Shown one piece after another: positions 9,546 to 13,206 of a stretch of 64,000 nucleotides of DNA (its first letter is position 1; each line of letters opens with the position of its first letter). The stretch covers positions 475 through 64,474 of the forward strand of contig JBCDFM010000003.1 in NCBI GenBank assembly GCA_039178015.1, read 5' to 3'. Both the position numbers and the translations under genes were made by a program. The stretch comes from Pseudomonadota bacterium (GTDB lineage: Bacteria > Pseudomonadota > Gammaproteobacteria > Pseudomonadales > Halieaceae). The notes beneath the pieces were generated by a model. The model was not told where the DNA came from and did no database searches. It saw nothing but the letters and a program-made list of their open reading frames with translations.

Positions 9546-9607
9546 AGCATTACTCCTTCTGGCGTCCTAATTCAGGGAATATCAGGCCTGTGAAGCAGAG
9601 GCAGCTC

Positions 9608-11041
9608 TCAGACCGTGGCATCGCGCATGTCTGCCCCTCTACCCAAAGCCGTGTCGTGTCTCACTGCGCCGGCTGCCTCTCGAATCAGAGGCCAGGTAGC
9701 GATAATCGCGATGACTAATAGTGCCATCTCTAGCGCGTAAACAGTCAAATAGCCGCCGGCAACCGACGGGAAGCCCCAGAGCTCGCCACCTTCTGTGATC
9801 AATGCGTTAACCACATCTCGTAGTGTTCCGCTAAGTGCCATGCCGATTCCCACGGCCGTGGCTTGTACAGCTCCCCATGAGCCTAAAGCCAACCCCACCT
9901 GCTCTTTAGGGGCGCGGTTCATCGCAGCTGTCAGCGTCCCGTGACTGAACAAAGCTGTACCAAAGCCGATTCCGAAATTACCCGCTAAAAACAAGATCGT
10001 CATATCGCTTGGCACAGCAGCGATCACTAACAGGAAGGCAGGAAGACCTATGAGTGCACCCAACTGTGCTACCCGATAGGGTTCACTCCCCCGCCCAAGC
10101 ACATGCGATGCATAGCCAAATCCCATTAGGCCACCGAGTGCCAGCAGCGCAGTCAGCAGCGTTGTAGAGCTCACGGTAAGGCCCAAGACCTGTCCGCCGA
10201 ATGGTTCAAGTAGAATATCAGCCATCCCAAACGCCATGCTGCCCAAGCCAACAACTACTAGACGCCTTATGGCATAGCTGCCAGCGCAGAAATCACGCCA
10301 AGAGTCGCGAAAGCTCGGATCTTCTACCACAGGCGCTCTTCCCCTTGGCGGGTTACGCGCTTCTTGCTTCCAGATCGCAATAACGTTTAGCAATAAACAG
10401 CTGACGGCAGCAGCCTGGATCACCTGCACTAATTTGCTATGCGAAAAGTCTTCCAAGGCCATCCCAAAAATCAGCGCGCTGATCATCATGCCCAGTAGCA
10501 GCATCACATACATCAACCCTACTACCCGAGGTTGAGATTCTTGCGGTGATAAATCCGTCGCTAGCGCTAAGCCCGCCGTCTGCACCGTATGAATTCCCGC
10601 CCCCACCAGCAGAAATGCAAAACCCGCAGCGAGCTGTCCGACTATGACAGGTGCATTAGAAGCCTGTCCTTGACCTCCCAATACCAAGAGCGCAAATGGC
10701 ATAATGGCGAAACCACCGAACTGCAACAGCGACCCTTTCCAAACAAACGGCACACGGCGCCACCCCAGCTCACATCGGTGCGTATCTGATTTAAAGCCGA
10801 TAACAGCACGCAGCGGAGCAAATAAAACCGGAAGAGCTAACATGATGCCCACGAGTGTGGCAGGCACATTCAGCTCGACGATCATTACCCTGTTGAGAGT
10901 TCCTACCAGCAGCACCATCGACATACCGACAGACACCTGAAACAGCGAGAGTCGAATCAGACGATGTAGCGGTAGCTCTGGCGTTGCCACATCCGCGAAA
11001 GGTAAAAATCGCGAACCCAAGGTGGCCCATGCCATGACCAT
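9608..11041 (-). CDS. pucC: PucC / BCD-family (bacteriochlorophyll delivery) MFS protein
   Basis: N-terminus LFQVSVGMSMVLLVGTLNRVMIVELNVPATL...APLRAVIGFKSDTHRCELGWRRVPFVWKGSLLQFGGFAIMPFAL is the PucC/LhaA signature. The start is moved from 11101 to ATG 11041 (MVMAW...), which is preceded by GGAGAAAAGG. It lies downstream of pucBA. Confidence 0.85.
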   Translation of the reverse strand: MVMAWATLGSRFLPFADVATPELPLHRLIRLSLFQVSVGMSMVLLVGTLNRVMIVELNVPATLVGIMLALPVLFAPLRAVIGFKSDTHRCELGWRRVPFVWKGSLLQFGGFAIMPFALLVLGGQGQASNAPVIVGQLAAGFAFLLVGAGIHTVQTAGLALATDLSPQESQPRVVGLMYVMLLLGMMISALIFGMALEDFSHSKLVQVIQAAAVSCLLLNVIAIWKQEARNPPRGRAPVVEDPSFRDSWRDFCAGSYAIRRLVVVGLGSMAFGMADILLEPFGGQVLGLTVSSTTLLTALLALGGLMGFGYASHVLGRGSEPYRVAQLGALIGLPAFLLVIAAVPSDMTILFLAGNFGIGFGTALFSHGTLTAAMNRAPKEQVGLALGSWGAVQATAVGIGMALSGTLRDVVNALITEGGELWGFPSVAGGYLTVYALEMALLVIAIIATWPLIREAAGAVRHDTALGRGADMRDATV

Positions 11042-11058
11042 CCTTTTCTCCAGGCGAT

Positions 11059-11181
11059 TCACTGAACGACACCCCACGCAAGACCGGTTAAGGAAAACCA
11101 AACAATAAAAACAACCACTGTGCTCAAGGAGAAGCGCGGCTGAAGAAGGCCCATATCATCAAACAAGCAAACAGCTGACAT
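11059..11181 (-). CDS. Candidate 40-aa single-TM peptide upstream of pucC (speculative)
   Basis: Hand translation gives MSAVCLFDDMGLLQPRFSLSTVVVFIVWFSLTGLAWGVVQ. The stop lies 17 nt before the pucC ATG. RBS is weak and there is no homology evidence. Confidence 0.2.
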   Translation of the reverse strand: MSAVCLFDDMGLLQPRFSLSTVVVFIVWFSLTGLAWGVVQ

Positions 11182-11234
11182 TGCCTGGAGTAACTCCGCT
11201 AGCCCCGCACGAGACACGCTGTCTCAAAAGCGAA

Positions 11235-11852
11235 TCAGCGTTCCTTATTACGAATAAGTAACGGTAGACCAAAACTCGAGCTTCGCTCGCCTTTAGGTTT
11301 AGTCAGCAGGGGTATGCCAAAGCTACTCTCTTTCTTTTTTTTCTCCGTCAAGGGCTTCAACCCAATCATGGAAGACAGTGGCGTAGGACCCTTACTCAGA
11401 CCACTGCCAAACATGAGCCAACTGCTTCGCGTGAGTGGGGGAAACAAGCGCGAGAGCATGCTTAGCCTGCGCGTTGCAAGAGCTGGCATTCCAATCAAAG
11501 AGGAAAGCGGCGTAGGGTTTCTGGGCGCAACCTGCGGGGAACCACCTGCATCCAGCGGGTTGGCGGATTCCAGTGCACTGGTAGCGCTCGCACCGGTGCC
11601 AAACTCAGCGTTCACTACAACAATATGGCGCCCTTGCGCTAAACCGCGAGAAAACACTACTGCCAGACTGCCGTTTAATTCCTCCACGCCGACATCGACT
11701 TTTTTAATCAAGCCAGCAGGCGTAATGGTTTCACCCATCACATCGGGACTGACATGAACAATCAGTTCATCCTTAAAACCTCGATCAAGCAGCGCTTGTA
11801 CCGCAGCGGCGGCTTGCTCACCAGTTTGGTACATCCGTCCAACGTAGGCCAT
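11235..11852 (-). CDS. Uncharacterised protein inside the puc locus: globular N-domain plus C-terminal repeated [ST][ST]-x-x-G-x-P-x-L motifs
   Basis: 205-aa ORF with a GAGAGG RBS. C-terminal repeats are PTPLSSLIGMPAL, PTPLSSMIGLKPL, SSFGIPLL and SSFGLPLL. It is on the same strand as pucA and pucC and lies between them. Confidence 0.6.
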   Translation of the reverse strand: MAYVGRMYQTGEQAAAAVQALLDRGFKDELIVHVSPDVMGETITPAGLIKKVDVGVEELNGSLAVVFSRGLAQGRHIVVVNAEFGTGASATSALESANPLDAGGSPQVAPRNPTPLSSLIGMPALATRRLSMLSRLFPPLTRSSWLMFGSGLSKGPTPLSSMIGLKPLTEKKKKESSFGIPLLTKPKGERSSSFGLPLLIRNKER

Positions 11853-12018
11853 AGGCGCCTCTCATAGAGCTTGTTAGCAATACATCTTCTATGGCTCTCC
11901 CAAAAGAGAAAGCCGGTCACATTTGCACCACCGACGAGCGACGCACCAGTGAACCGAGTGCGCCGGCGCCCGTGGAGCTGATGGACTACCCCACCTTCAT
12001 ACCGCGTATTGGTCGCAC

Positions 12019-12039
12019 GCTAGATAGCACTTATCTAGC
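12019..12039 (-). other. Stem-loop downstream of pucA (possible mRNA-stabilising or attenuating hairpin)
   Basis: Perfect 8-bp stem GCTAGATA / TATCTAGC with a 5-nt loop, 46 nt after the pucA stop. There is no U-tract, so it is not a canonical intrinsic terminator. Confidence 0.3.
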
Positions 12040-12084
12040 AGCAAGACTCGATAAACAAGCCTTACTAAATCAATCCCAGGCTCG

Positions 12085-12228
12085 CTATCCGCCCCAGAAT
12101 TGCGACATCCAACTCGTATTATTCAATATCAGGTAGTGTATTAGGAGTGAGGTGATGGCAGCACTGCTCAAGAACAGCGGCAAACCAACTGTGGGCTTAA
12201 CCACACACCAGATTCTTCCGTTATTCAT
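12085..12228 (-). CDS. pucA: Light-harvesting complex 2 (LH2) alpha polypeptide
   Basis: Hand-translated 47 aa: MNNGRIWCVVKPTVGLPLFLSSAAITSLLIHYLILNNTSWMSQFWGG. It aligns without gaps to Rhodobacter LH2 alpha (M.NGKIW.VVKPTVG.PLFLS.A.I.S..IH) with His31 conserved. The ATG lies 11 nt after the pucB stop, behind GGAGATAGAGA. It is below the ORF-track cutoff. Confidence 0.88.
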   Translation of the reverse strand: MNNGRIWCVVKPTVGLPLFLSSAAITSLLIHYLILNNTSWMSQFWGG

Positions 12229-12239
12229 TCTCTATCTCC

Positions 12240-12404
12240 TCATCCAAACCAGGGTGAATAAATGAACGCCAATGCGTGTGCGATCACTGCGATGAAGAAG
12301 AACACTCGCGAGCCGTCGATGACGTGCTTGTGAAGCTCTTCCGATTCTTTGATCGTCAGACCCGTGGGCCATACGCGATCTGGATCATCCAAGTCAGTAG
12401 CCAT
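12240..12404 (-). CDS. pucB: Light-harvesting complex 2 (LH2) beta polypeptide
   Basis: Hand-translated 54 aa: [54 protein letters not shown]. It matches LH beta chains (VWP.GLT..E.EE.HK, ..RVF, A.IAH.L, PW.G) including the BChl-binding His. Strong RBS GGAGGAAACTT-ATG. It is below the ORF-track cutoff. Confidence 0.9.
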
Positions 12405-12544
12405 AAGTTTCCTCCACGAAATACTGGCCGAATATGAAGCAATTTAGACCTCATCTTCACCAACCGACGGGCGTTAGTTGCTCGTTTTGTAGGGTCAATC
12501 ATGCACTGCGATACCGCAGTTGCTAGTTTGCCAACCCTAAATTC

Positions 12545-12573
12545 ACAGTAGCAGCATTAATAAAAGCAGTCAA
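12545..12573 (-). promoter_or_regulatory. Candidate sigma70-type puc promoter (-35 TTGACT, 17-nt spacer, -10 TACTGT)
   Basis: The minus strand reads TTGACT-gcttttattaatgctgc-TACTGT. This predicts a leader of about 130 nt before the pucB ATG. Confidence 0.3.
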
Positions 12574-12593
12574 GACTTCTTGTCATTCTATAC

Positions 12594-12611
12594 TGTAAAC
12601 TAAAGTTGACA
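12594..12611 (-). promoter_or_regulatory. Perfect TGT-N12-ACA palindrome (PpsR/CrtJ-type operator) upstream of pucB
   Basis: TGTAAACTAAAGTTGACA at 12594-12611, about 20 nt upstream of the candidate -35. A one-mismatch copy (TGT-N12-GCA) lies at 12488-12505. Confidence 0.35.
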
Positions 12612-12654
12612 TTCTGGAGATGGCGCTCCAAATCACCCCGCAAGCGGGCAGGCA

Positions 12655-13206
12655 CTATCGCGCGTCACGTAAAACCCAGGCATAACGGCGGCACTGGGCA
12701 TCTAATTCTTCTGGATTTCGCGTGGGTGAACATCTTCCCGGAGCCAACGAGGTCACATAAAGGGCCAAGCACTCTTCTTCACTCAGATCCTCCGGCGTTT
12801 TGTTGAAATAGTGCTTCGATCCATGAATCAGTCCGCGACCCCCTTCAAAAGGCAAGAAATGCATGTACAGAGCCAGCATCAACTTCCTCCCTAGACGCTT
12901 TGGTAGAAGGTAACGCCAAAGCAGCACGCGAGCCTGCATGACCTGCGCATCGGCGTCATCGCCCTCCAGGTGGACAATTACTTTACGGCAAACAATATGC
13001 GTAAAAGCGTCCTCTTGAAGACGTAAGACCAGCTTGACGAGCGCAGCAGGTGGTTCAAGTTCGCTCGGATTAAGTCGCTTGAGTAACCGATCGACCTCAG
13101 GCTGCAAGTCAAAATAGGCCGTCTTGCAATACCAGAACAACGCCACTAAGGCGACAAGGACAAATGCAATCATCAGCGCGAACAGCGCAAGCGGTAGAGA
13201 CATCAT
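12655..13206 (-). CDS. Membrane-anchored, degenerate GT51 (peptidoglycan transglycosylase)-like domain protein
   Basis: 183 aa with an N-terminal TM helix. QEDAFTHIV resembles the EDxxFxxH motif. LPFEGGRGLIHGSKHYFNKTPEDLSEEECLALYVTSLAPGR resembles the GT51 G.GxxGxxxAAxxYFxKxxxxLxxxExAxLAxxxxxP block. It is shorter than MtgA and lacks a clear GxSTITQQ motif. Confidence 0.45.
   Translation of the reverse strand: MMSLPLALFALMIAFVLVALVALFWYCKTAYFDLQPEVDRLLKRLNPSELEPPAALVKLVLRLQEDAFTHIVCRKVIVHLEGDDADAQVMQARVLLWRYLLPKRLGRKLMLALYMHFLPFEGGRGLIHGSKHYFNKTPEDLSEEECLALYVTSLAPGRCSPTRNPEELDAQCRRYAWVLRDAR

Follow-up and report, generated by a model that had tools for sequence, protein, structure and literature searches.

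The window, by which we mean the whole stretch of 64,000 nucleotides analysed here, carries on its minus strand a puc locus in which pucB and pucA, encoding the beta and alpha chains of an LH2 antenna, are followed by an ORF of 205 codons and by pucC (Table 1). pucB precedes pucA with a gap of 11 nt between the two ORFs, both ORFs are intact and each has a Shine-Dalgarno sequence in front of it, and pucC lies on the same strand about 1 kb downstream of pucA. The listed start of pucC, a TTG codon, was assigned mechanically, and the true start may be slightly downstream. Homologues of the 205-aa ORF were also found beside pucBA in Pseudohaliea rubra (L061, 3309-4025) and in the Halieaceae genome G033 (L087, 2425-3108), with PLSS(L/M)IGMP and SFG(F/L) as common motifs. 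Upstream of pucB there is a TGT-N12-ACA palindrome that overlaps a weak sigma-70-like match; because this pattern occurs 10 times in the whole window against 12.2 expected by chance, we rejected it as evidence, taken by itself, of PpsR control, and it is suggestive by its position alone.

Table 1. Features of the puc locus, with positions counted along the window
Feature	Position	Strand	Basis or remark
pucC, MFS-type LH2 assembly factor	9608..11101	minus	PF03209 (PUCC), E 1e-142
ORF between pucA and pucC, 205 aa	11235..11852	minus	ORF list; no Pfam match
pucA, LH2 alpha chain, 47 aa	12085..12228	minus	ORF list, PF00556, ungapped PDB alignment
pucA Trp45, codon TGG	12096..12094	minus	Read from sequence
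pucA Phe44, codon TTC	12099..12097	minus	Read from sequence
pucA His31, codon CAC	12138..12136	minus	Read from sequence
pucB, LH2 beta chain, 54 aa	12240..12404	minus	PF00556, E 1.7e-7, above cut-off
182-nt stretch 100% identical to congeneric genome G020	12307..12488	minus	pucB leader and pucB codons 1-32
TGT-N12-ACA palindrome	12594..12611		PpsR/CrtJ-type consensus; ~190 nt upstream of pucB

The best PDB matches of the deduced beta chain were the Rps. palustris chain 7ZE3_B (E 7e-24) and the Hlr. halophila chain 8Z81_b (E 4.5e-23), and LH1 beta chains matched it with E 1e-7 or worse. The histidine within AVIAHALA aligned with the ligand histidine of both of these chains, and the sequence further reads an Arg at -10 from this ligand, an ELHKH motif and the conserved C-terminal Trp (SPWFG). 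The Arg at -10 corresponds to the donor of the hydrogen bond to the B800 acetyl group in solved LH2.

The pucA ORF scored over the curated cut-off of Pfam family PF00556 (LHC; E 1.2e-9) and translates as MNNGRIWCVVKPTVGLPLFLSSAAITSLLIHYLILNNTSWMSQFWGG, ending in ...SQFWGG before a TAG stop at 12087..12085. The register of this chain was examined by a phmmer search of the window alpha chain against all PDB chains, which gave 11 matches, all of them LH2 chains. Residues 1-47 aligned without gaps with residues 1-47 of 7PBW (Rba. sphaeroides, ...LPAYYQG), of 7ZCU, 7ZDI and 7ZE8 (Rps. palustris PucA a/b/c types, ...KYWNG) and of 7ZE3 (Rps. palustris PucD type, ...KFMNG), and 1KZU (Rbl. acidophilus B800-850, ...PAYWQGG) matched over residues 1-47 as well. 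In the same unchanged register, the match extended over residues 1-46 of 1IJD (Rbl. acidophilus B800-820, ...AAFLQGG) and over residues 1-45 of 9DWZ, a further B800-820 chain (...PAFQQGG). His31, the B850 ligand, aligned with His31 of 7PBW, 1KZU and 7ZCU and, since both His31 and Trp40 coincide with those of solved LH2 alpha chains, the register of the Phe44-Trp45 pair is firm. The first-pass annotation had placed the alpha chain in residue-for-residue register with Rba. sphaeroides PucA up to position 45, with His31 coinciding, and had set Phe44-Trp45 against Tyr44-Tyr45 in Rba. sphaeroides and Tyr44-Trp45 in Rbl. acidophilus; the ungapped PDB alignments, those with 7PBW and 1KZU for the residue pair, agree on both points, and formal alignment with the solved LH2 chains revealed no shift that would move Phe and Trp away from positions 44 and 45.

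Position alpha-44 is thus without a hydrogen-bond donor, with Phe44 aligned with Phe44 of 1IJD, 9DWZ and 7ZE3, and the donor at alpha-45 is present as Trp45, like in the B800-850 complexes 1KZU and 7ZCU. Position 41 is Met, where 1IJD and 8Z81 have Tyr41. The alpha N-terminus, MNNG, is of LH2 type, with Met1 as B800 ligand. The transmembrane helix (window 12148-12168, codons 21-27) reads LSSAAITSLLIHYLIL against the consensus LGSVAxISLxVHxAxL, Ser21 and Ala23 replacing Gly21 and Val23, which are each at least 90% conserved in the family alignment; the Rba. sphaeroides alpha chain likewise has Ser21 and Ala23. Judged by these alignments and motifs, 12404..12085 is a bona fide LH2 pucBA pair.

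The puc locus is flanked in the window by gammaproteobacterial housekeeping genes (nrdAB, fadB, dinG, gshA and ubiD), and UbiD is 85-88% identical to proteins of Halioglobus sp., a Halieaceae bacterium, Parahaliea maris and Seongchinamella unica, indicating that the genome belongs to Halieaceae (OM60/NOR5 clade). The source assembly comprises 4.5 Mb in 442 contigs and is 91% complete; a single pair each of pucBA and pufBA was found across it, the latter on a contig other than that of the puc operon (C49, about 9600-12930; L001, L002), where pufL, pufM and the cytochrome subunit gene (pufC) are followed by pufB and pufA. This pufLMC-BA order is typical of the OM60/NOR5 clade. Of the 22 species of the genus that were sampled, four have reaction-centre genes, and two of those four also have LH2 genes; across the family, pucA occurs in 39 of 306 Halieaceae genomes, concentrated in seven of 40 genera.

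The expected absorption of such a complex can be approached through published calibrations. In the 2.1-Å structure of Rba. sphaeroides LH2, the C3-acetyl groups of the B850 BChls each accept a hydrogen bond, from alpha-Tyr45 in the case of the alpha-bound pigment and from alpha-Tyr44 in that of the beta-bound one (PMC8775250). With Tyr-Tyr, Phe-Tyr and Phe-Leu at positions 44/45 the band lies at 850, 838/839 and 826 nm, respectively (PMC8775250). The Tyr44-to-Phe mutant, B800-838/839, is attributed there to Fowler et al. 1992/1994 (as cited in PMC8775250). At 77 K the shift amounts to about 220 cm-1 in the single and about 450 cm-1 in the double mutant, and multiscale modelling assigns 140-220 cm-1 to each bond, with Trp45 as the weaker donor, at about 140 cm-1 (PMC6988754). 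In Rbl. acidophilus, Trp45 bonds the alpha-bound BChl (PMC10070313). In the LH2 of Hlr. halophila (8Z81), which has alpha-Phe44, the beta-bound BChl is unbonded, the alpha-bound one keeps the single bond that is left, from Tyr41, and the complex absorbs at 835 nm (PMC11802735). Among Phe-Phe antennas, the LH2 of Pseudohaliea rubra, whose alpha chain has Phe44-Phe45 and belongs to the short-alpha family, absorbs at 804/821 nm in vivo and is produced constitutively and in excess over LH1 (PMC3679898), and that of Rhodoferax antarcticus absorbs at 819 nm (PMC5374385). Features beyond the reach of sequence alone also influence absorption, namely the torsion of the acetyl group, the coupling between pigments and the size of the ring (PMC6988754; PMC10070313). 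Neither the literature nor a cluster look-up of ten Phe-Trp proteins, which gave no organism names, yielded a cultured Phe44-Trp45 organism with a published spectrum; what the literature offered was limited to the mutant, to Phe-Phe antennas and to a hypothesis on Rhodoferax antarcticus Fryx1 (836 nm; sequence not known). A 67-aa chain deposited as 'B-800/814 alpha chain' (PDB 9LT4) is a distant relative of the window alpha chain (E 5.6e-8), and a literature search found no paper describing this B800-814 complex.

From the identity of the genes, their register and the residues that they carry, we infer the assembly, the Trp45 bond and the wavelength as follows. The host would be an uncultured aerobic anoxygenic phototroph of Halieaceae (OM60/NOR5 clade), whose alpha and beta chains would form an LH2 ring. 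The B800 site of this ring would be normal, given that alpha Met1, beta Arg-10 and beta ELHKH are all there, and alpha-His31 and the beta His would ligate its strongly coupled pigments. The alpha chain could still supply, through Trp45 at its periplasmic end, a hydrogen bond for the C3-acetyl of the alpha-bound BChl, and Phe44 has none to offer to the beta-bound BChl of the adjacent unit; with Met at alpha position 41, the substitute donor of LH3, Tyr41, is absent as well. Each pigment dimer would then have a single hydrogen bond in place of two, giving a higher site energy for half of the pigments, so that the band would be expected between those of B800-850 and B800-820 complexes. Starting from the zero-bond band at about 820 nm, one bond of about 220 cm-1 would place it at about 835 nm, alongside the one-bond calibrations at 835 and 838-839 nm.

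The combination of Phe44, Trp45 and Met41 fits the one-bond sequence pattern, for which the bond and the wavelength are predictions. Filing the complex as LH3/B800-820 was rejected, as Trp45 is kept and Tyr41 is absent. The first-pass annotation had argued that loss of the Tyr44 hydroxyl removes a hydrogen bond and causes a blue shift, which fits the published mechanism (PMC8775250, PMC6988754); its blue-shifted antenna stands as a prediction, refined to a one-bond intermediate rather than a B800-820 complex, since Trp45 is kept. On balance, we consider it likely that the pucB-pucA-orf205-pucC operon encodes a one-bond LH2 with a band at about 830-845 nm, most likely at 835-840 nm, the departure of its alpha helix from the family consensus at residues 21 and 23 being a reservation.

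In a tree, the window pair groups with that of the congeneric genome G020 (L086; SH-aLRT support 95). The two beta chains differ at two of 54 residues and the two alpha chains at 12 of 47, most of the 12 alpha differences falling in the transmembrane helix. Between these two genomes, dN and dS are 0.02 and 0.22 for pucB, and 0.15 and about 1.6 (saturated) for pucA, with a pucA dN/dS of about 0.09. This low dN/dS in pucA and pucB indicates that both genes are under purifying selection. Positive selection on the alpha chain was considered in view of the 12 differing residues, and rejected, as dN/dS is about 0.09 with saturated dS.

These values bear on whether the antenna is made at all. The pucBA genes could be intact and yet expressed little or not at all under most conditions, in which case RC-LH1 alone would be seen and the pair would be invisible in the spectrum. 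Expression of pucBA cannot be taken for granted in this family, which is the weightiest reservation on the predicted band: Congregibacter litoralis KT71, also of Halieaceae, has pucA and pucB, yet none of the laboratory conditions tried brought out an LH2 band (PMC2654016). The patchy distribution of LH2, in both the family (39 of 306 genomes) and the reaction-centre-bearing species of the genus (2 of 4), would fit a dispensable function. Nevertheless, dN far below dS in both genes, which speaks for purifying selection, the intact ORFs with their Shine-Dalgarno sequences, the presence of pucC downstream and the constitutive production of LH2 above LH1 by Pseudohaliea rubra of the same family (PMC3679898) all argue against silent genes, and we regard such silence as unlikely.

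The residue pair was placed in its family by means of the 120 closest 90%-identity cluster representatives of the window alpha chain (P0001-P0120), among which Tyr-Trp was found at positions 44/45 in 37, Phe-Phe in 35 and Phe-Trp in 26, with Phe-Leu (8), Phe-Met (5) and Phe-Ile (5) as rarer states. Alpha chains of at most 50 residues make up 104 of these 120 representatives, mostly with a GG end, and an alpha chain of 47-48 residues is the norm of the family. The first-pass annotation had reported that the chain ends two residues past Trp45 without an extension, which is right for the sequence and does not hold as a peculiarity, a short chain being the family norm. In raw counts that ignore relatedness, Phe44 was seen in 77 of the 104 short (<=50 aa) chains and in three of the 16 with C-terminal extensions. 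Phe-Trp also occurs in species-representative MAGs labelled Gemmatimonadota, Longimicrobiales, Wenzhouxiangella, Candidatus Thiosymbion, Granulosicoccaceae and Geminicoccaceae. For Halieaceae, where 29 pucA genes were read, the states were Phe-Phe (12), Phe-Trp (6, in three genera), Tyr-Trp (6) and Phe-Leu (2), with Phe-Met, Trp-Phe and Thr-Phe once each. Comparison across related pucA genes, which had been proposed together with the original observation, therefore establishes Phe-Trp as real but frequent (26/120 overall and 6/29 in Halieaceae).

A second alternative is that Trp45 is left unbonded in so short a chain, for instance owing to its end two residues further on, and that the complex would behave like a Phe-Phe antenna near 820 nm. 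The closest relatives, namely G020 in the genus and G033 and P. rubra in the family, are indeed Phe-Phe, with the P. rubra band at 821 nm, and of the two bonds that of Trp is worth less, about 140 cm-1 (PMC6988754). Against this, the ...FWGG end recurs in 24 of the 104 short chains and YWGG and YWQGG ends occur just as often, suggesting some reason for the retention of Trp45, and in Rbl. acidophilus, whose chain aligns without gaps in this register, the alpha-bound BChl is bonded by Trp45; an unbonded Trp45 thus appears very unlikely to us. That the band stays at about 850 nm or longer, through a bond supplied by another residue or through compensation by stronger exciton coupling, is more improbable still: the beta-bound BChl of Mch. 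purpuratum is bonded by beta-Trp47 and by no alpha residue (PMC10070313), the window beta chain retains the conserved C-terminal Trp and Tyr-Trp complexes vary in band position, so that the baseline is not fixed, but this beta-Trp is conserved across most LH2, and the heptameric Mch. purpuratum complex is the only one in which it comes close to the pigment ring (PMC10070313), and every calibrated Phe44 case is blue-shifted.

A tree of 83 rows was built from the beta chain and alpha residues 1-43, the trait columns being left out, and on this tree the 44/45 pair state required at least 27 changes. Phe-Trp accounted for 13 changes for 14 rows, no fewer than with shuffled labels, and at least three Phe-Trp origins were forced by the starred branches alone, the alignment being short and most forks unresolved. 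Phe-Trp is thus scattered over the tree, and both this pair and the absent C-terminal extension are family-wide and labile features. In Bradyrhizobium, the strains sp. STM 3809, ORS 375 and HKCCYLS20291 (L045, L049, L023) have Tyr-Trp and B. denitrificans LMG 8443 (L080) has Phe-Phe, with identical beta chains and nearly identical alpha chains with long (127-aa) tails, a further natural contrast at the tuning positions. In some genomes there are two or three pucBA pairs, spaced by a few kb (L062; L074, Chromatiaceae MAG_MBR_AS.5; L041; L059; L063), with 44/45 states that, within one genome, differ (Phe-Leu, Phe-Met, Phe-Met) or agree (Tyr-Trp twice).

The locus of the congener G020 differs from that of the window in a mosaic-looking way. 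The G020 alpha chain is Phe-Phe (...WMAQFFGG), which gives a predicted band at about 820 nm against about 835-840 nm for the Phe-Trp chain of the window. In addition to the identical 182-nt stretch, which covers the pucB leader and the first part of pucB, the flanks of this block match at about 75% and the 3' half of pucA at about 63% identity. Sequences from other genera are about 75% identical across pucB and have nothing in common upstream of the ribosome-binding site, and constraint alone therefore explains the identical block poorly; it may reasonably be read as the product of a recent recombination. A pair-specific constraint on the leader would be an alternative for this block. A bolder proposal, to which we assign a low probability, is that one genus holds two differently tuned sole antennas, that parts of pucBA recombine independently and that the C-terminal segment of the alpha chain serves as an exchangeable colour module; if this were true, closely related marine phototrophs could partition a near-infrared light niche.

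What the locus adds is one more uncultured marine Halieaceae species with an antenna colour that could be read from two residues. The mechanism is textbook and the variant is common in nature, so that the finding is correct but ordinary. Environmental LH2 genes widely show Phe-Trp, which is what the Tyr44-to-Phe mutant corresponds to in nature. In terms of the genetic code, Phe-Trp is one nucleotide away from Tyr-Trp and two steps from Phe-Phe via Phe-Leu, an intermediate state that occurs in nature; given these codon distances, it could plausibly serve as a stepping stone that links B800-850 with B800-820 antennas. A measured Phe-Trp antenna would fill a small calibration gap and leave the understanding of LH2 tuning unchanged, and further effort might be worthwhile only for the Phe-Phe contrast with G020 and the mosaic-looking pucBA locus.

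Among known systems, the Tyr44-to-Phe mutant of Rba. sphaeroides shows the same register (7PBW) and the same change at residue 44, with a donor kept at position 45 and the same expected loss of one of the two C3-acetyl hydrogen bonds. That mutant, however, was engineered and retains Tyr45, whereas the window chain is natural, carries Trp45 and belongs to an aerobic gammaproteobacterial host; the Rba. sphaeroides alpha chain also extends past residue 47 (50 residues in the 7PBW chain), where that of the window ends. The LH2 of Hlr. halophila BN9622 (8Z81) has alpha-Phe44 too and a beta chain very similar to that of the window, but its remaining bond comes from alpha-Tyr41, while in the window, with Met41, Trp45 would be the donor; furthermore, its alpha chain has 71 residues and its LH2 occurs in a double-ring co-complex with LH1 (PMC11802735).

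Within the same family, the LH2/'LH3' of Pseudohaliea rubra DSM 19751 resembles the window in its short alpha chain (48 aa), in a nearly identical N-terminal half of the beta chain and in the layout of the locus, with an unknown ORF after pucA. It differs in having Phe44-Phe45 and Tyr40, in place of Trp45 and Trp40, and the window complex would be expected to absorb about 15 nm further to the red. Relative to Rbl. acidophilus, with which the register is ungapped, the window chain shares Phe44 with LH3 (1IJD) and Trp45 with B800-850 (1KZU/1NKZ) and fits neither type, since LH3 combines Leu45 with Tyr41 and B800-850 has Tyr44. The LH2 forms of Rbl. acidophilus are alternative products of a light-switched multigene family, whereas a single pucBA pair was found in the genome of the window.
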